IMG/VR virus record: IMGVR_UViG_2579778784_000003
Source of the DNA: a virus
Lineage: Duplodnaviria; Heunggongvirae; Uroviricota; Caudoviricetes
Length of the DNA: 8,736 nt
Reading direction: 5' to 3' (one strand)
The notes beneath the pieces were generated by a model. That model saw only the letters and a program-made list of their open reading frames with translations. It did no database searches and was not told where the DNA came from. Positions 1-8,735 of this stretch are shown here, one piece after another (the first letter of the stretch is position 1; every line of letters starts with the position of its first letter). A program made the translations under genes and the position numbers.

Positions 1-639
1 TGCGGCCTCCCGCGCTTTTGTGGTGGCGACTCCGGCATTTTCAGCGGCTGACTCTGCATTACGGCGGGAAGCCTCTTCACTGTCTGCGGAGGCTTCTTCT
101 GACGCACGGGCATTTGTCTCTGAACGTTCTGCCGCTGTTGCTGCGTTTTGTGCGGCTGTTTTTGAAGAAGCTGCCGCTTTCGCGCTGTTACCTGCATTCG
201 TCTCTGATGTTTTCGCCGCATTCCTGGACGATGCCGCTGCTGTTTCTGATTTCTTTGCTGCCGCTGCGCTCTGAGAGGCGGCTTCAGCGTTGCGTGCCGC
301 TTCTTCCACCATTTCCTCAAAACGACGCAATGCCTCCGGCATGACATCATCTTCCGTCATGGCACCGAGAAAATCATTCAGCGTACCTGGTCTGGAACCT
401 TCATAGACGGTAATGGTCCCGGCATGTGAAGGCGGAAAACCTTCAACCAGCAGGGTGACGCTGTACTGTCCATACTCAACATCCATGCTGTAACGCCCGG
501 CTTCATCCGGATTTTCAGAGGCCACTGTGTTGACCAGTACCGTGGTGCTGTTACGCTTTGCCTTCAGTTGAATAGTGCAGTTCTGTATTGGTTTTCCCGC
601 ACCATCTTTCAGCACACCTGAGATTTTTACTGCTGCCAT
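1..639 (-). CDS. stf: Side tail fibre protein Stf, N-terminal 213 codons only (3' end lies beyond the window start)
   Basis: Not in the supplied ORF track because it has no stop in the window. Hand translation of the minus strand from the ATG at 639..637 gives MAAVKISGVLKDGAGKPIQNCTIQLKAKRNSTTVLVNTVASENPDEAGRYSMDVEYGQYSVTLLVEGFPPSHAGTITVYEGSRPGTLNDFLGAMTEDD..., then an Ala/Ser-rich repetitive segment (..SETNAGNSAKAAASSKTAAQNAAAAERSETNARASEEA..). It runs open to position 1 in frame. The N-terminus closely matches lambda Stf as I recall it. GGAG RBS-like motif at 648..645 (minus). Position directly downstream of lom matches lambda synteny. Confidence 0.85.
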   Translation of the reverse strand, partial: MAAVKISGVLKDGAGKPIQNCTIQLKAKRNSTTVLVNTVASENPDEAGRYSMDVEYGQYSVTLLVEGFPPSHAGTITVYEGSRPGTLNDFLGAMTEDDVMPEALRRFEEMVEEAARNAEAASQSAAAAKKSETAAASSRNAAKTSETNAGNSAKAAASSKTAAQNAATAAERSETNARASEEASADSEEASRRNAESAAENAGVATTKAREAA

Positions 640-650
640 ATCCACTCCAC

Positions 651-676
651 AAAAAAGCCCGCCTGAACCGGCGGGC
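651..676 (-). terminator. Putative intrinsic terminator downstream of lom
   Basis: Minus-strand RNA would read GCCCGCC-GGUUCA-GGCGGGC followed by UUUUUU (plus strand: A-run 651..656, stem arms 657..663 and 670..676). A 7-bp GC-rich stem followed by a U-tract, oriented for minus-strand transcription, 28 nt after the lom stop and 12 nt before the stf start. Confidence 0.5.
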
Positions 677-703
677 TGTCATAACACTGTGTTACCTGGC
701 TAA

Positions 704-1303
704 TCAGAATTTATAACCGACACCAACGATGAAACCGTCAGTGCGCCAGTCGCCACTGCCGGAACCTTCATAAGCAATATCAATGGCCACGGATTCGGTC
801 GGGTTAAACTGCACGCCAGCCCCCCATGCCAGAGACGTGTCGCTGTGGCGACCGTCATCACTTCCGGTCAGCACATCGTGCGTTTTCCCCTTGTTGTCAG
901 TTACGCGGAGATAATCCCCGGAGAACGTCGAAACACGGCTGTAAGCCACACCCGCCATCGCATAAGCACTGAACCATTCATTCACGCGTACAGACGGCCC
1001 CGCCATCACGCTGAACCAGCGGTTACGCACTGAATCTTCATGCCAGCGGGTATCGCTGTAATGCGTTTTTTGCTCATCTTTGGCATTGGCATAACTGAAT
1101 GACGTCACCAGCCCCAGCGTGTCCGTAAATTCATAACGGTATTTCACGTTAATGCCCTTCAGGTCATCACTGCCTGGCATATCAGTATGGGTCTGAAGAT
1201 ACCCGGCGCTTAGTGTGGACTGATGCTCTGCTGCGCTCGCTGGCGTACCAGCGGCAACCAGCCAGACTACTGCGGACAGAATAACAGCACATAATTTACG
1301 CAT
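704..1303 (-). CDS. lom: Lom-family outer membrane protein (Ail/Lom/OmpX 8-stranded beta-barrel family), prophage moron
   Basis: 199-aa ORF. N-terminal signal peptide MRKLCAVILSAVVWLVAAGTPASA with an AxA cleavage motif. C-terminal block IDIAYEGSGSGDWRTDGFIVGVGYKF matches the lambda Lom C-terminus as I recall it; terminal aromatic residue typical of OM beta-barrels. Location between J and stf is the canonical lom position. RBS-like GAGAGG upstream. Confidence 0.9.
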   Translation of the reverse strand: MRKLCAVILSAVVWLVAAGTPASAAEHQSTLSAGYLQTHTDMPGSDDLKGINVKYRYEFTDTLGLVTSFSYANAKDEQKTHYSDTRWHEDSVRNRWFSVMAGPSVRVNEWFSAYAMAGVAYSRVSTFSGDYLRVTDNKGKTHDVLTGSDDGRHSDTSLAWGAGVQFNPTESVAIDIAYEGSGSGDWRTDGFIVGVGYKF

Positions 1304-1325
1304 AATTACCTCTCGCTTTTCTGCA

Positions 1326-1351
1326 ATAAAAAAGGCGTCATTTCTGACGCC
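1326..1351 (-). terminator. Putative intrinsic terminator downstream of J
   Basis: Minus-strand RNA would read GGCGUCA-GAAA-UGACGCC followed by UUUUUUAU (plus-strand stem arms 1334..1340 and 1345..1351, A-run 1326..1333). It starts 20 nt after the J stop, with a GNRA-like tetraloop. Confidence 0.55.
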
Positions 1352-1370
1352 CGTATTGGGGTTATAAAAT

Positions 1371-4300
1371 TCAGCTGATACTGATACCAGCTGTAGATTT
1401 CTTCATCACAACAACAAGAAGGTCGCTGATACTGGTCGTTGGCGTCCAGTTATTAGCACCATATGAAGAAACATTGAAAGTCAGGGTGACATGGCCGTGT
1501 CCGGCAGGCATATCAATGACTGATGAAAATACCCTGCTGACATCCGTCGCGGGTTGCTGAAAGATTTCCTGTCCGTTCTTCAGCACCTGCAGCTTACAGG
1601 TTGAATACCAGTATGACTGTTGGTTGTTGCTGTTGAAGTTTTCATGCTTACCACCGCGAAACAGAACGGGGGGGATTACTATCTGACGGTCAAAAGCCTG
1701 GTCATCGTACACAGTGACCGTTATTGTACCGCTGGCATAACTGCCATTTCTCGGAAAGGCTTTTCCCACCGTTTTGACAATATCACCTTCAATCTGGTTG
1801 GCTGACAGTTTTCCCAGAATCCGACAGTTCTGATTAATCGTGACGTTGTTGAGCGTCCCGGAGTTCGCGTTCACGTTACCGCTGATATCCGCATTTTTCG
1901 CCGTCAGTCGCCCGTCAGGTGTCAGTGAAAACGTTGGGGGATTGCCACCGCTGGTAATGGTGGGAGCCGTCAGATATTTCAGGAACACTTCGTTCATGAA
2001 TATCTGATCGCCCTGCCCAACAAACATCGGCTTTGTGTTGCCATTCGCAGGATTAATCATCGCAATCCTGTCTGCCGCCAGCAGCACCTGACTCTGCATA
2101 CCGTCGGGGGTGTTCTCAATACCGGCACCGATACCCGCGATATAAAGGCGTCCGTCCTGCATCTGCTGCAGCTTCACAGCCCACATGCTGTTCAGGTTAT
2201 TATTTGTATCAACCTGAACCTTCTGTATCTGCTGGATCGCTGCACTCTGGTCTTCCAGTTTCTTATTGACGGTCTGCGTGATTTCATTGCTGACACCCGT
2301 AATGGATGTCCTGATTTCAGCCAGGTCAGGCGCAAGCTGACCGTTATCAATCTGCGTCCACAACTCCTGAGCCAGGTGTGTTTTTCCTATCTCTCCTTTG
2401 AAAAAATCCAGATAGCCGGATGCGTCATCACTCGGCTGACCGACAGCCTCCACGAATGTCGATTTGCCGACGGTGTTCACACTGCGAACGTAAAAATAAT
2501 AATCATGGCCCGGTTTGATATTGATACTGGCGGCTATCCAGTACAGCGCCGTGCCAAGATAGCGGGCTGTGGTTTCAACCTGCCTGATATCCGCAATCCG
2601 CTTTTCCGAGAACCAGAACTCAAACTGTACCGTCGGATCATAAACCGCAAGATGCGGCGTGGCGGTTATCTGAAAATAGCCCGGCGTCAGCTCAATCCGC
2701 GACGGCGCTGCCGGTGCGGCAATCCGGAACGATACCGATGCCGGATCGCCCTGCTGTCCCCACGCATTTACCGCCCGGACCGTCAGCGTGTAACGCCCCA
2801 GCGCCAGTTGCCTGAAGCGGTATGTGGTTTCCGTCGTCCGGGCCGTGCTGACCAGCCGCTCACTGCCGTCGTCCGCTGTTACGGTCAGGCGAAGCAGGAA
2901 GCTCACCCCCTTCACCACCTTCGGTGTGTCCCAGCGCGCCAGCACCTGGTATTCCCCGCTGTCTGCGGTGACTTCTGCGGTCAGGTGCTGCACCGCTGGC
3001 GGCGTGACACCGTTTACCGTTCCGCTCTGGTCGCCGTCAAAGTGCGCCCCGTTATCCACGATGGCCTCTTTTTCCGGTACATGCTGCACGGCGGTGATGG
3101 CATACGTGCCGTCGTCGTTCTCACGGATACTCACGCAGCGGAACAGGCGCTGGCGCAACGTCGGCAGCTTCAGCCCCCATACGCTGTATTCAGCAACGCC
3201 GTCAGGAACACGGCTCACTTTCACCTTCACGCCGTCGGTGACGGACTGAACCTCCACGCTGACCGGACTCCCCTGCCCGTCAACCAGACTTATCAGCGTG
3301 GTGCCGGAAGATGGCAGCGTGATTTCACGGTCGAGCGTCAGCGTCCGGGTCTGGCTGTTTACCGCCAGCACGCGCCCGCCGGTGCGGATACCGGCATAGT
3401 CATCATCGCAGATTTCAATGACATCGCCCGGTACATGGCGAAGCCCTTCGGCACCCACGCTGAAATCCACGGTCTGCGTTTCCAGCAGTTCTGTTTTAAT
3501 CAGCCACAGCCCGGCGCGGTGTGCCTGCCCCCGGCTGGTACAGCCAAAAGCATCCATCTTCGTGACGTTACGACCGTAACGGGCAATGGCCTGCGTATCC
3601 TCCACAAGCTCTGTCGCCGTCTCCCAGCCGTTGTTCGGGTCAATCCAGTTCACCTCAACGGCATTATGGCGGTCTTTCAGGGCGCTGAAGCTGTAGCGGA
3701 ACGGCGCGCCATCATCCGGCATCACCACATTACTGCGGTTATAGGTCCACACCTTATCCGACGGTCGGTCCTGCACGAACGTCAGCGTCTGCCCGTTCCA
3801 TACCGGCATACAGCGCATCGCCGAGCAGAAATCACTGAGCACATCCCACGCCTTGCGCTGTGTGGTCAGGTAAGCGTTACAGGTGATGCGCGGCTCCGTG
3901 CCGCCAAAGCCGTCCGGCACCGACTGGTCGCAATTCTGGCCGATGACATACAGCGCCCATTTATCCACATCCGCCGCACCAAGACGTTTCCCCATGCCGT
4001 AGCGCGGATGGGTCAGCATATCCCACAGACACCAGGCCATGTTGTTGCTGTATGCCGGTTTTAACGTTCCGTCCCAGATACCGCTGTATTGCCGCGTCTG
4101 CGGGTTATAGTTCGACGGCACCTGCAGAATGCGCCCGCGAAGATGATAATTACGGCTCACCTGCTGGCTGCCGAACTGCTCCGAGTCCACCTGCACGCCA
4201 ACCAGTGCCGTGTTCGGGTAGCACTGTTTCACATCGATGATTTCGGTGTATGACGACCAGAGCGTTTTGTTCTGCAACTGGTCTGTGGTGCTGTCCGGCG

Positions 4301-4853
4301 TCATCCTGCGCATCCGGATATTAAACGGGCGCGGCGGCAGGTTATCCACCACCACCGAGGCCAGATACTGCGAGGTGGTTTTGCCCTTAATGGTGATGTC
4401 TTTTTCCGTCACCCAGCCACCGTTACGCTGTATCTGAACCAGCAGGCGAACTTCCGACGGATTCCTGTCTCCCTTTGAGGTGGTTTCCACCAGTGCCTGT
4501 ACACCGAAGGTAAAGCGCAGACGGTCGATGTTTGCCGACGTGATGGTCCGGGTGATCGGCGTGTCATATTTCACTTCCGTACCCAGCACCGTCTCGGAGC
4601 CGGAGGATTCAAATCCCTCCGGCGGTGACTGCTCCTGCTCACCGGCCCGGAACACCACCGTGACGCCGGATATATTGGTATTCCCCTCACTGTCCAGCAC
4701 CGGCGTACTGTTCAGCAGCACGCTTTTTAACCCATCCACCGGACCTTCAACCGGCCCTTCGCTGATGGCATCGATCACACTCAGCAACTGCGTGGACTTC
4801 AGGTTGTCCTTCGCTTCGCGCGGGGTATGCCCCTTACTGCTGCCTTTACCCAT
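1371..4853 (-). CDS. J: Tail tip host-specificity protein J (central tail fibre)
   Basis: 1160-aa ORF. N-terminus [54 protein letters not shown] and C-terminus ..[39 protein letters not shown] both recognisably match lambda J (1132 aa in lambda, from memory). GGAG RBS at about 4866..4863 (minus). Follows I and precedes lom as in lambda. Confidence 0.95.
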
Positions 4854-4875
4854 TCGTCATGCTCCATAAACGACA

Positions 4876-4895
4876 AAACCGCCCGCAGGCGGTTT
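4876..4895. other. Perfect 8-bp stem / 4-nt loop hairpin in the I-J intergenic spacer
   Basis: AAACCGCC-cgca-GGCGGTTT read directly from the sequence. No convincing U-tract on the transcribed (minus) strand, so it is not called as a terminator. Lies about 20 nt upstream of the J RBS. Confidence 0.3.
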
Positions 4896-4913
4896 CACAT
4901 AAAACATTTTGCA

Positions 4914-5561
4914 TCAGCGACCAATCACCACAACCTGACCACCGTCACCTTCGTCTGCCGTGCTGATCTCCTGAGAAACCACCCGCGACCCCACACGCAT
5001 TTCACCGTACAGAACAGGCAGAACATTGCCCTGAGCAACCATGTTATCCAGTGAGGAGAAATAGGTGTTCTGTTTGCCGTTATCTGTACTGGCTGCCGTG
5101 GGCGTCCTGGCTTTCGGTGCCAGCATCTGGGCCACACCACCCAGAATCATACTGGCCCCTGCCGCATACATGCCCGATACAGCCGCAGCACCCAGCCAGC
5201 CCACAGGGTTCCACCATGCCACCGCAATCAGCGCCGCCCCCAGCACCACCTGAAACACACCGCCACTTTTAGCTCCCGCCATACGCGGCACGATGTGAAT
5301 CACGGCACCATTTTCCAGCGGCTCATTAAGACGGGCAGATAATTCATTTTCGCCTGCATCACGCCCGGCAATGCGCACCTGATACCAGCCCTCATTCAGT
5401 TTCTGGCGAAACGACGGAAGCTGCGTGGCCAGCGCCCGGATGGCTTCAGCCCCCGTTTTCACACGAAGGTCGATGCGGCGGCCAAATCGTTGTAAATCCC
5501 CGTAAAGGCAGATGCGTGCCATGCCCGGTGACGCCAGAGGGAGTGTGTGCGTCGCTGCCAT
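4914..5561 (-). CDS. I: Tail tip assembly protein I
   Basis: 215-aa ORF. N-terminus MAATHTLPLASPGMARICLYGDLQRFGRRIDLRVKTGAEAIRALATQLP and C-terminus KQNTYFSSLDNMVAQGNVLPVLYGEMRVGSRVVSQEISTADEGDGGQVVVIGR match lambda I as recalled. Central Gly/Ala-rich hydrophobic segment. The 103-nt overlap with the 3' end of K is the same arrangement as in lambda. Confidence 0.9.
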   Translation of the reverse strand: MAATHTLPLASPGMARICLYGDLQRFGRRIDLRVKTGAEAIRALATQLPSFRQKLNEGWYQVRIAGRDAGENELSARLNEPLENGAVIHIVPRMAGAKSGGVFQVVLGAALIAVAWWNPVGWLGAAAVSGMYAAGASMILGGVAQMLAPKARTPTAASTDNGKQNTYFSSLDNMVAQGNVLPVLYGEMRVGSRVVSQEISTADEGDGGQVVVIGR

Positions 5562-6202
5562 TTGTCGGTATACCTCTCTCGTTTGCTCAGTTGTTCAGGA
5601 ATATGGTGCAGCAGCTCGCCGTCACCACAGTAAATGGCGGCATGATTCGGCACCGATGAACCAAAACAGCACAGCAGCACATCGCCCGGCTGCGCCGCTG
5701 ACAACGGCACCTGATACAGCCCTGTGGCCTCCAGATTATCCAGATAGAGATTCTGACCGTGACGCCACCAGTCATCCCCGCGATGAAAATCCGGCATCTC
5801 AATCCCCGCCAGATGGTAAGCATCCCGGAACAGCGTGTAACAGTCCGTCACCCCGTGCTCAAAGCGCCGCCCGGTAAGATGCGGCACACAGCGGAATTTA
5901 TGAATCTCACCCCGGCAGACCAGCCACCACGGCAAATCACTCTGCACCTGCAGCCGCCGGTCAGCCTCACTCAGCCAGGGCAGACCACCGGGGTGGCTGT
6001 GGACCAGCGCCACAATCTCACCCTGCGTCTCTGCCCGCAGCCAGTCCTCCGGCGACATCCGGAAATACTCCTCCGGCTCACCGGAGATATTCACGCAGGG
6101 AAAATATCTTTCCCCTTCCGGCGTTCTCACCACGAAGCCGCACGACTCCGCTGGCGCACATCGCCGGGCGTGCGCCAGAATCGCTGATTCTGTCTGTGTC
6201 AT
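5459..6202 (-). CDS. K: Tail tip assembly protein K (N-terminal MPN/JAMM-like domain plus C-terminal NlpC/P60-like domain)
   Basis: 247-aa ORF starting MTQTESAILAHARRCAPAESCGFVV. It contains HSHPGGLPWLSEAD, which fits the JAMM signature HxHx7Sx2D, and a downstream Cys (GVTDCYTLF) and His (NHAAIYCGDGELLHH) consistent with an NlpC/P60 papain-like fold. Start lies 5 nt after the L stop. An internal ATG at 6058..6056 (Met49) would give a 199-aa product, which I believe corresponds to the classical lambda K annotation. Confidence 0.88.
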   Translation of the reverse strand: MTQTESAILAHARRCAPAESCGFVVRTPEGERYFPCVNISGEPEEYFRMSPEDWLRAETQGEIVALVHSHPGGLPWLSEADRRLQVQSDLPWWLVCRGEIHKFRCVPHLTGRRFEHGVTDCYTLFRDAYHLAGIEMPDFHRGDDWWRHGQNLYLDNLEATGLYQVPLSAAQPGDVLLCCFGSSVPNHAAIYCGDGELLHHIPEQLSKRERYTDKWQRRTHSLWRHRAWHASAFTGIYNDLAAASTFV

Positions 6203-6207
6203 GGGAT

Positions 6208-6906
6208 TTACTGCGAAAGTTTGTTAATGGAAAGGAAGCCGCCAAAGTTGCTGACATTATTGCGGAACTTACAGCCACTCAGGCATTTGCTGCATTTATC
6301 CTTCGTGATATCGGACGTCGGCTGGTCATATTCATCCGCGACAGCCGGACCGTGATAACCACACTCATCGCCGCGATAGGTCCAGGTGCAGGTGTTGGCC
6401 AGCATGATACGCCCCGGAAAAACAGCACCATCCGTTTCCGTCGGTGTGGACAACACAAAGGAGGCACTGACCGCACTCAGTTCGCTGCACTGCTCGATGC
6501 GCCAGCGGCTGATCACCTCCTGCTCCGGATCGGCGTCGCTGTTTCCGTTGACGAAGTTCACCGCATCCAGAAAACGGGCGTAAACCTTACGCCGGACCAC
6601 CGTTCCTCCGACCAGACTCTGCAGGTCTTCCGCCATCCCGGTGACCATGCCGTGCAGGTTAGAAACCGTCAGTGTCGGACGGGCAGCACTGCCCTTGCCG
6701 TTCAGTTCAAATCCCGTCCCCTGAATGGGATACGCCTGATACTGTCGCCCCTGCCAGGTGACCGGCTCACCTTTTTCGTTCTGCTCATTACAGAAAAAAT
6801 AACGTTCTCCACCGACCACTGTCAGATCGATTTCCCAGAGCACCACCTGGGCTGACTGAGTGAGGCGTGTCGTCTCATGATGTGTTTCCTGTGGAATATC
6901 CTGCAT
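6208..6906 (-). CDS. L: Tail tip protein L
   Basis: 232-aa ORF, the same length as lambda L. N-terminus MQDIPQETHHETTRLTQSAQVVLWEIDLT and a C-terminal Cys-rich segment (..CTWTYRGDECGYHG..CSKCLSGCKF..) match lambda L as recalled. AGGAG RBS at about 6915..6911 (minus). Confidence 0.9.
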   Translation of the reverse strand: MQDIPQETHHETTRLTQSAQVVLWEIDLTVVGGERYFFCNEQNEKGEPVTWQGRQYQAYPIQGTGFELNGKGSAARPTLTVSNLHGMVTGMAEDLQSLVGGTVVRRKVYARFLDAVNFVNGNSDADPEQEVISRWRIEQCSELSAVSASFVLSTPTETDGAVFPGRIMLANTCTWTYRGDECGYHGPAVADEYDQPTSDITKDKCSKCLSGCKFRNNVSNFGGFLSINKLSQ

Positions 6907-6915
6907 CAGAGACTC

Positions 6916-7386
6916 CTATGCCACGACCTGTTCAAAATCTGCCGTTATGGTTACCCACAACGCCCCCACGCTTACCGACCATTTACGACAAACCACCCTG
7001 ATCGGCTTCCAGTCATAAGGTGGCGTCCACTGAAATGCGCGGACGCCACCGTGCCGTTCCAGAAAGGCTTTTAAAGATGGGTGTTCACATTTACGAACAC
7101 GTATCGTCACGCTGTAAGTCGACAACTGGTTATTCAGTCCCGCCGCACGACGCTGTTCATAACCATCGCCCAGCTTCACTGTCACCACACCGTGCCGTTC
7201 CAGAAAGGCTTTTAAAGATGGGTGTTCACATTTACGAACACGTATCGTCACGCTGTAAGTCGACAACTGGTTATTCAGTCCCGCCGCACGACGCTGTTCA
7301 TAACCATCGCCCAGCTTCACTGTCACCACTTTCGGCTCTGATACCACATTCATATCCGGGCGCACTTTCCAGTGAAACGTCTCCAT
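6916..7386 (-). CDS. M: Tail tip protein M carrying an internal 47-aa in-frame tandem duplication
   Basis: 156-aa ORF. N-terminus METFHWKVRPDMNVVSEPKVV and C-terminus FQWTPPYDWKPIRVVCRKWS..FEQVVA resemble lambda M (about 109 aa). The block VVTVKLGDGYEQRRAAGLNNQLSTYSVTIRVRKCEHPSLKAFLERHG occurs twice in direct succession. The start ATG (7386..7384) overlaps the H stop TAA (7388..7386) by 1 nt. Confidence 0.85.
   Translation of the reverse strand: METFHWKVRPDMNVVSEPKVVTVKLGDGYEQRRAAGLNNQLSTYSVTIRVRKCEHPSLKAFLERHGVVTVKLGDGYEQRRAAGLNNQLSTYSVTIRVRKCEHPSLKAFLERHGGVRAFQWTPPYDWKPIRVVCRKWSVSVGALWVTITADFEQVVA
7047..7329. repeat. Perfect direct tandem duplication, 2 x 141 bp, inside M
   Basis: Base-by-base comparison of 7047..7187 with 7188..7328 found no mismatches. 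Identity also extends one base to 7329, and it breaks at 7046 vs 7187 and at 7189 vs 7330. The period of 141 bp equals 47 codons, so the frame is preserved. Confidence 0.9.
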
Positions 7387-8735
7387 TACCGATATGCTCC
7401 ACTTAACCGACCACCATCACGGGCCTGCTGTTGCATAAAGTCCGCTGCCGCTTTTTTCCCAAGGTCATAAACCACCTTCAGGGCAGCCGGACCTATCTGC
7501 CCGTTCGTGCCATCGTTATTGATCTCGATGTTGTACTGCGGGGCAAACATCGCCATACCTGAACCACCAATGTCCGCCACAACCCCCAGCTTACCGTCAG
7601 CACCACGACGCAGTGGCAGAATGGCTTCAGGTCCAGCTTCCCCCATCACACCCGCGCCTTTTGCAAAAGCAAAAAACGTCGGACGGTTAACCACCGTGCC
7701 ACTGTAACGACTCAAATCAGCAGACTGATAAATCCCCCCATTGGCATTCAGGGAAAGGCTGCTGAGATCAAATCCCAGTACACTGCCAATCCCTTTTATC
7801 GATTTCATCACGGTTGCCTGCGCCAGGATCTTCGCCATATCTGACAGCACCGAAGAGGTGAAGGATTTGAAGTTGAGTTTGCCGGTAGTGACAAAAGTTG
7901 CCAGGCCATTTCCCATGTTGCTGAAGGCTGACGAGAACACCTGTTCTGCTGTTCCTGCCGTATTGTCTGCATCCACGGTAAAATCCTGAAATGCACGCAG
8001 GACTCCGTTTTTCCAGTTACCCTGCACAACTTCAAGCTGTTGCCAGTAACGGCGATTCTCATTCAGTTGTCGGTTCAGGCTCTCCGTCAGCGCCTGCTCG
8101 GACTTTCTGTAGTCATCCGTGTTATATGTCCCTTTCTGCTCACTATCCCGCCTCAACTGCTCCAGCTGTTGCTGGTATTTCTGGCGAAGACTCAGTTGTA
8201 CCTGATATCGCTGCCGCTGCTGATCACCCATACCCACCGTGGCGATATCCAGGTCATGTTGCTGACGCTGAGCGCGCTCTTCTTCAGCCAGTTGACTGGT
8301 CAGCTGAATTGTTTTTTTCTTCAGCTCGTTGAGTGCCGTCTGTTTCTGAAGCTCCTGCTGTTTTACATCCAGCAGCGTCAGTGCCTGAATCAGTTCATCT
8401 TTACGGGCCAGCACACTCTTTTCATCTGCCGTCAGTTTTTTCCCGTCCAGGTCGCTGATGCGCTGCTGCAGAGCCAGAAGCTGTTTATGCGCTTCTGTCA
8501 TCCTTTCCGTGGCAATGCCTGCTGACTGTCTGGCAGCAGCAATCTGTCCTTCCACCTGTGCCTGTTGCTGACTGTACTGCAGCAATAACCGGGTGGCCTC
8601 ATCATTACGGGTTTCGCGTGTTTTTTTCTTACCGGATGCCAGGGCTTTCTCGTAACGTTCATTTTCACGTTGTATCGCCGCATCCCTGACAGCCTGATCG
8701 GCGTACTGCATGGCATTAATACGCGCAATTTCACG
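7386..8735 (-). CDS. H: Tail tape measure protein H, C-terminal portion (5' end lies beyond the window end)
   Basis: The ORF track gives 441 aa from an internal Met at 8711, but the frame stays open to the window edge (hand-translated upstream codons give ..REIARINA-MQYADQ.. with no stop), so the true start is outside the window. Gln/Glu/Leu-rich coiled-coil-like stretch followed by a Gly/Ser-rich C-terminal region, typical of tape measure proteins. Position immediately upstream of M with a 1-nt stop/start overlap matches lambda H-M. Confidence 0.88.
   Translation of the reverse strand, partial: REIARINAMQYADQAVRDAAIQRENERYEKALASGKKKTRETRNDEATRLLLQYSQQQAQVEGQIAAARQSAGIATERMTEAHKQLLALQQRISDLDGKKLTADEKSVLARKDELIQALTLLDVKQQELQKQTALNELKKKTIQLTSQLAEEERAQRQQHDLDIATVGMGDQQRQRYQVQLSLRQKYQQQLEQLRRDSEQKGTYNTDDYRKSEQALTESLNRQLNENRRYWQQLEVVQGNWKNGVLRAFQDFTVDADNTAGTAEQVFSSAFSNMGNGLATFVTTGKLNFKSFTSSVLSDMAKILAQATVMKSIKGIGSVLGFDLSSLSLNANGGIYQSADLSRYSGTVVNRPTFFAFAKGAGVMGEAGPEAILPLRRGADGKLGVVADIGGSGMAMFAPQYNIEINNDGTNGQIGPAALKVVYDLGKKAAADFMQQQARDGGRLSGAYR

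Follow-up and report, generated by a model that had tools for sequence, protein, structure and literature searches.

The window analysed here, a stretch of 8,736 nucleotides, covers the distal tail module of a lambda-like prophage, and all of its long open reading frames (ORFs) lie on the minus strand. In the direction of transcription, the ORF listing and Pfam matches give the C-terminal part of H (7386..8711), M (6916..7386), L (6208..6906), K (5459..6202), I (4914..5561) and the tail-tip attachment and host-specificity gene J (1371..4853). The C-terminal 330 residues of J match Phage_Tail_Tip and Ig_GpJ_C, and its final ~165 codons (1371..1865) form a receptor-binding end of low GC content. 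J is followed by lom (704..1303) and then by the N-terminal part of stf (1..639; ATG at 639..637; Pfam phage_tail_N, E = 2e-64), a gene that is cut by the window edge. lom encodes an outer-membrane beta-barrel protein of the Ail/Lom family, 199 aa long, which matches PF06316 over its full length (residues 1-199 on profile positions 1-199), scoring 425.6 bits (cut-off 23 bits; E = 3.4e-128).

Two short spacers set lom apart from its neighbours, one of 67 nt between J and lom (1304..1370, GC 0.39) and one of 64 nt between lom and stf (640..703), the latter nearly identical to lambda 19586..19649. The J-lom spacer ends in the lom leader (1304..1324), which carries the Shine-Dalgarno sequence GAGAGG at 1314..1309, and the lom-stf spacer ends in the ribosome-binding region of stf (640..650). 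Elsewhere in the window, M carries a perfect tandem duplication of 141 bp (7047..7329, minus strand, 2.0 copies, 100% identity) that adds an in-frame repeat of 47 aa and brings M to 156 aa. A 541-nt query is covered over only 400 nt, at 100% identity, in the best-matching complete E. coli genomes, which are therefore single-copy for the 141-bp unit; the duplication is either a rare real event or an assembly artefact.

Terminator-like hairpins on both sides of lom

Each spacer contains a hairpin with the anatomy of an intrinsic terminator, taken as a GC-rich stem of at least 5 bp, a short loop and a U-run immediately 3' on the transcribed strand. The first, T1 (1325..1352), reads GGGCGTCA-GAAA-TGACGCCT from 1352 to 1333, followed by TTTTTATT. 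Its arms (1352..1345 and 1340..1333) form 8 pairs, 5 of them GC, around a GNRA-type GAAA loop of 4 nt (1344..1341), and the run of six T (1333..1328, the stem-closing T included) continues with ATT to position 1325. The second, T2 (651..677), reads AGCCCGCC-GGTTCA-GGCGGGCT from 677 to 656, followed by TTTTT at 655..651; its arms (677..670 and 663..656) form 8 pairs, 7 of them GC, around a loop of 6 nt, and the T-run counts five to six. The sequence 3' of this run is GTGGAGTGGAT; the stf Shine-Dalgarno sequence GGAG (648..645) immediately adjoins the run, and 11 nt separate the run from the stf ATG.

A terminator scan of both strands of the whole window returned 15 terminator-like sites (7.7 ± 2.7 expected), among which T2 ranks first and T1 second, and no similar hairpin was found at the remaining gene junctions. 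The stem-loop energies are -13.0 kcal/mol for T1 and -17.6 kcal/mol for T2, and the whole-spacer folds are more stable than those of shuffled sequences (z = -2.6 for J-lom, -2.4 for lom-stf). Since the plus strand lacks a T-run at either site, both elements are unidirectional and co-oriented with the genes. An earlier note on this DNA, made from the sequence, had described lom as bracketed by spacers of 67 and 64 nt, each with a GC-rich hairpin and a U-tract oriented for minus-strand transcription. The ORF listing, scan and energies agree with that description: both hairpins are real, conserved (see below) and the two top-ranked sites of the window, and the coordinates proposed for them (1326..1351 and 651..676) were right to within one base.

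A search for Rfam-type RNA families gave two hits, both below threshold. One, to a eukaryotic lncRNA model, was rejected. The other placed T2 in the Trp operon leader (RF00513, Trp_leader; hit 649..731) and was likewise rejected, with 27.3 bits against a gathering threshold of 41. T2 does share a AGCCCGCC...GCGGGCT stem and a U-run with the terminator of the E. coli trp attenuator; unlike the attenuator, it has neither a leader peptide nor alternative pairings, and the resemblance is one of terminator hairpins only.

Conservation of the hairpins and their linkage to lom

Relatives were collected in four scans (a Lom protein scan of IMG/VR, two IMG/VR pattern scans and a pattern scan of a collection with one genome per species), and extraction with the leader pattern from the loci of the earlier scans gave 159 distinct lom loci. 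Among these, the stem of T1 occurs as GGCGTCA/TGACGCC, GGCGCCA/TGGCGCC and GGCACCA/TGGTGCC, differences that are compensatory, and as a few wobble or mismatched intermediates, with GAAA or GGAA loops. In an alignment of 28 distinct T1 sequences 98.2% of cells are paired, with compensatory changes (13 doubly changed cells) in 2 of the 8 pairs. Pairing falls to 32-62% when the partner is slid by 1-3 columns. Pairing, doubly changed cells and covariation score were each matched by 0 of 500 shuffles, a test that related sequences may pass even without structure. Because there are two independent compensatory pairs, and because lambda has a non-homologous hairpin at the same position, the simplest reading is that the T1 helix is under selection. 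T2 varies by loop changes, by wobble or single-sided changes and by rare mismatches; no compensatory pair was seen among the T2 variants of the relatives, which is uninformative on pairing either way, so covariation backs T1 only. A second family of lom-stf spacers, ~160 nt long and present at 19 loci, carries an unrelated hairpin, AAGCCCG...CGGGCTT with T7 (-18.7 kcal/mol), which again lies ~17 nt ahead of the stf ATG. In two IMG/VR loci (L090 and L150) the T1 stem is the same and the loop is flipped to TTTC in place of GAAA. This is the whole hairpin in reverse complement, the outcome expected where a perfect inverted repeat undergoes inversion or template switching.

We compared the window region by region with six relatives, lambda among them. 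The T-tract and leader (1332..1304) are 100% identical in the five non-lambda relatives, and the last 330 nt of J in the same relatives are 34-65% identical. Two of them, L083 and L086, drop to 64-66% identity over the first 75 nt of lom, next to a leader that is 100% identical. On the other side, the 3'UTR is 100% and T2 81-100% identical in L001, L083, L086 and L062; despite these conserved sequences, the body of lom is 50-60% identical in L001 and L083. Among 145 related records that reach far enough upstream, 140 have a J-lom spacer of 66-70 nt, and across the set the J C-termini beside it are 40-100% identical over their last 150 residues. T2 is also kept after lom where stf is absent (L011, L018 and L021), with divergence starting right after the T-run. 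T1 and T2 belong to the lom cassette, since these flanks are better conserved than the genes that they border and stay by lom where J receptor-binding ends, lom bodies and stf N-termini differ. The two hairpins thus mark the borders of a unit; exchange either moves this unit whole or swaps its body between the conserved borders. Taken together, anatomy and conservation support T1 and T2 as genuine, selected terminator-like elements that travel with lom.

Several single loci bear on the history of the region. In the Stx1a phage LC744186 (L083, 1952..2648) T1, leader, 3'UTR and T2 are 100% identical to the window around a lom allele with 53% protein identity, and the lom body appears to have been swapped between fixed non-coding edges. 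In an IMG/VR record (L062) an ORF with a transposase-like C-terminus (...RPHHYNGGLTPEESE...) replaces the J end upstream of T1, with a gap of 68 nt from its stop to the lom ATG; judged by eye, this is a probable IS insertion at the cassette edge. Scanning with the T2 pattern returned mostly unrelated generic terminators and one prophage (L212, ~9019..9290) in which only the final 16 nt of the lom 3'UTR precede T2 and stf. Directly upstream of these 16 nt stands a YbcW-like ORF of 68 aa that stems from a lysis/bor/ybcV-type region, and the locus looks like a deleted, rearranged prophage. The pattern scan of IMG/VR found no phage locus in which this stf start lacks a preceding T-run; the single match to that pattern was a chance hit inside an unrelated ORF and was rejected. 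Nor did the IMG/VR pattern scans find an empty junction, with the same J and stf and without lom, which leaves the original insertion event beyond reconstruction. In HK97, stf comes straight after J and lom is absent, and its J and stf are not close homologues of those in the window. Within the lom-less J-stf spacer of HK97, 207 nt in length, a long inverted repeat was read by eye (L207, 5045..5160), GGAAGGTGCGAATAAGT...ACTTATTCGCACCTTCC, whose arms lie ~60 nt apart.

The closest described system is lambda itself, in which J, lom and stf (orf-401; NC_001416, 18,904..19,649) have the same order and strand logic, with spacers of 61 and 64 nt. Lambda 18.9-19.7 kb and the window are nearly identical from the last ~120 nt of lom through the 3'UTR and T2 with its T-run to the stf ribosome-binding site (81-100% for 3'UTR, T2 and ribosome-binding site), whereas the body of lom is ~52% identical and the Lom proteins share 46% identity. 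T2 of lambda reads AGCCCGCCG-GAAC-CGGTGGGCT. The lambda J-lom hairpin occupies the same place as T1 with a different sequence, CGTCCG-GGAA-CGGGCG followed by TTTTATT, and is weaker (6 bp, -9.0 kcal/mol); a leader homologous to that of the window lies 3' of it, and the receptor-binding end of lambda J differs from that of the window J. Luk and Szybalski (1983) reportedly described tandem terminators distal to J, a description not used as evidence here. In the Stx phages of the phi24B, 933W and VT2-Sakai type, which are short-tailed, lom is also of the Ail/Lom family and has a strong intrinsic terminator downstream, but identity is down to 32%, the surrounding genes are different and there is no terminator upstream.

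Composition, promoters and the moron concept

We asked how far lom departs from its surroundings in composition. Its GC content is 0.535 (0.555 at third codon positions, GC3), against 0.563 (GC3 0.677) for the whole of J; the J end that adjoins it (1371..1865), with GC 0.473 and GC3 0.533, lies below lom. Among the other neighbours, GC content is 0.540 for the N-terminal part of stf, 0.520 for M and 0.523 for H. We set lom against 136 control windows of 150-200 codons drawn from the other genes. It ranks at the 40th percentile in GC content and at the 9th in GC3; in synonymous-codon distance from the pooled tail genes, 16% of the control windows exceed it. The impression that lom is less GC-rich than J is therefore correct for the whole genes and wrong for the J segment next to lom. 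The earlier note had also suggested that lom was a separately acquired unit, an idea that it held would fail if GC content and codon usage were indistinguishable from those of the flanking genes. This is essentially what the calculation gave: lom is no outlier among the 136 windows, and composition does not mark it as separately acquired. The composition break is inside J, not at lom.

A consensus scan found no sigma-70-like site upstream of lom. We also scanned with an approximate sigma-70 position-weight matrix built on approximate consensus frequencies. The best score in 1304..1750 was 5.4 (ATGACC-16-GATAGT), below the mean maximum of shuffled sequences (8.2 ± 1.7), and 95% of 200 dinucleotide shuffles of the same interval scored at least as high; the second-best hit, CTGACT-15-TATGGT at 1484..1458, scored 5.35. 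Neither the spacer nor the final 450 nt of J thus shows a detectable sigma-70 promoter, a weak one or one of a non-sigma-70 type being beyond a sequence scan. Applied to the region upstream of lambda lom, the same matrix gave no promoter-like site above shuffled expectation. Both scans agree with the earlier failure to assign a convincing sigma-70 promoter; the accompanying suggestion of a promoter overlapping the 3' end of J finds no support in a best score of 5.4 against a shuffled-maximum mean of 8.2. Because no promoter-like site precedes lom here or in lambda, an independent, autonomously regulated transcription unit is no more than a hypothesis for lom in its J-lom-stf form. On the plus strand of the J-lom spacer (1342..1370) a promoter-like match, TTCTGA-17-TAAAAT, scores 9.1 and points into J in antisense; its -10 region, read in the opposite sense, is a conserved TTATAACCC motif upstream of T1. 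With a score inside the range of shuffled maxima, the match is probably due to chance.

The term moron was coined for HK97 and HK022. In the GenBank record of HK97, gp22, a 'moron product', lies between I and J, and a putative terminator (AGCCACC-TTTG-GGTGGCT followed by TTTTT) ends 12 nt before the J start, the same geometry as that of T2 before stf. The HK022 record places the 'moron' cor downstream of J. Like lom, these are accessory genes inserted in a late tail operon, although the genes themselves are unrelated. The slot between I and J, used by gp22 and gp23 in HK97, is also that of the Hfq-dependent sRNA PasB in EPEC strain E. coli E2348/69 (L250; NC_011601, 1466256..1466495), which lies on the opposite strand of a 240-nt I-J spacer; the I-J spacer of the window (4854..4913) is 60 nt long and holds no insert. 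PasB was considered for its relevance to lom and rejected, given this position in the I-J spacer of E2348/69, antisense to the genes, and the lack of its probe sequence anywhere in the window.

Morons are described as having their own promoter and terminator and a GC content unlike that of the surrounding genes (Cumby et al., PMC3594210). For lom, T2 (677..651) is a factor-independent terminator of its own, top-ranked at -17.6 kcal/mol and kept in the absence of stf. Neither the consensus nor the matrix scan gave lom a promoter of its own, and its composition does not differ from that of the flanking genes. Expression from prophages, which the earlier note had ascribed to the Lom/Ail family, is reported in the literature: repressed lambda prophages express both lom and bor (PMC7067206), lambda Lom is an example of a prophage-expressed moron-encoded protein (PMC3594210), and the distant homologue in phi24B is expressed constitutively, uncoupled from phage regulation (PMC3342100, PMC4651098). 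The phi24B lom has an AT-rich spacer of ~90 nt with a moderate promoter-like sequence, TTGAAG-19-TAAAAT, that scores 9.5. Our literature search found no usable transcription start site or Term-seq data on lom, lomR or stfR.

Proposed transcription across the lom cassette

We consider that the region is probably a lambdoid lom cassette within the late tail operon, with a terminator at each end that would limit transcription in the lysogen and be read through under Q. On this reading, the accessory Ail/Lom gene, inserted between J and stf, is closed off on either side by a Rho-independent terminator oriented with the operon. During lytic growth, Q-modified RNA polymerase from pR' would ignore T1 and T2, and a long late transcript would provide J, lom, stf and tfa. 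In the lysogen, which lacks Q, T1 would halt stray transcription leaving J and T2 would end any transcript covering lom, such that the side-tail-fibre genes would stay silent and Lom could be made; together the two terminators would limit prophage transcription in the lysogen to lom. We infer these functional steps from lambda biology, in which a 27-kb transcript from pR', made with the antiterminator Q, carries the late genes and lom-stf-tfa is dispensable (PMC10695390). Since Q-modified polymerase reads through, the position of T2 close ahead of the stf ribosome-binding site would be no bar to fibre synthesis. The proposal that stf expression depends on read-through of T2 is supported in this respect and fits a Q-antiterminated late transcript of ~27 kb (PMC10695390).

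Three other explanations were weighed below insulation of lom by two terminators, and none is mutually exclusive with it. The first takes T1 as a leader attenuator that would set or regulate the polymerase reaching lom, with a lysogenic lom transcript starting in the 3' end of J or at TATAAC (1366..1361). The conserved upstream part of the cassette does consist of the hairpin, the T-run and a 29-nt invariant leader, such that a normal promoter would not fit between the hairpin and the start codon, and the TTATAACCC motif upstream of T1 is conserved beside different J ends. However, TATAAC lacks the conserved final T, has a -35 match of 2-3 out of 6 and scores 2.5, far under the shuffled maxima; the 3' ends of J are highly variable, and a promoter inside J would not travel with lom; and no alternative anti-terminator structure is evident in the fold of the 67-nt spacer. 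We regard a role of T1 as attenuator in place of insulator as unlikely. We are similarly doubtful that the cassette is a terminator-leader-gene-terminator unit with no promoter of its own, in which lysogenic Lom would be made by conditional read-through of T1 as an attenuator or under post-transcriptional control of the leader. Such control could act on the invariant 29-nt U-rich leader through, for example, Hfq or an sRNA, modelled on other outer-membrane-protein mRNAs.

The hairpins might instead act mainly as RNA 3'-end stabilisers or processing barriers in the late mRNA, shielding its J and lom segments from 3' exonucleases, and be weak terminators. They are stable stem-loops at the 3' ends of two cistrons, and since Q suppresses termination, any lytic role would have to be post-transcriptional. 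Yet the T-runs are kept as strictly as the stems, at T5-T7 in almost all variants, and a T-run is needed for termination and not for protection against exonucleases; the other gene junctions of the window, moreover, do without such hairpins. This makes a predominantly stabilising function improbable. It is just as improbable that the flanks serve chiefly as recombination joints for the exchange of J ends, lom alleles and stf alleles, the hairpin form being incidental: identity does fall sharply on either side of each flank, and lom alleles with a protein identity of 46-53% have flanks in common (T1 and T2 in the case of L083, T2 alone for lambda), but the compensatory changes in T1 point to selection on pairing beyond sequence, lambda and the long-spacer variant place terminator hairpins of unrelated sequence at the same positions, and the roles of joint and terminator are compatible.

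Returning to a lom cassette insulated by terminators, the arrangement is a common one. Of 5426 complete E. coli genomes, 4869 (about 90%) contain matches to a J-lom-stf segment of 1 kb, with a median of two copies per genome, and the matches span at least 80% of the query in 3860 genomes; among the matches listed, annotations are Ail/Lom family protein, gpJ and tail-fibre protein. In the collection with one genome per species, the window-type leader occurs only in Escherichia and Shigella. The lambda-type leader, searched as a 35-nt match, appeared in low-coverage contigs of Pseudomonas, Shewanella, Neobacillus, Kitasatospora and others (L251-L279), three of them ~48.4-48.5 kb long; these are taken to be contamination of the assemblies with lambda control DNA.

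J-lom-stf with bracketing terminators is an ordinary arrangement that is already known. The present finding mostly confirms annotation, and the earlier interpretation stands for the terminators and for read-through into stf; it does not stand for composition, where the calculation makes lom no outlier, or for a promoter in the J end, which the scans did not find. Two points may nevertheless be useful. Both terminators, not just the downstream one, belong to the mobile lom unit and appear to be kept by selection, and lom, as far as its sequence goes, lacks the promoter of its own and the different GC content by which morons are usually recognised. If the cassette is truly promoterless, its logic would differ from that of the textbook 'promoter-gene-terminator' moron.
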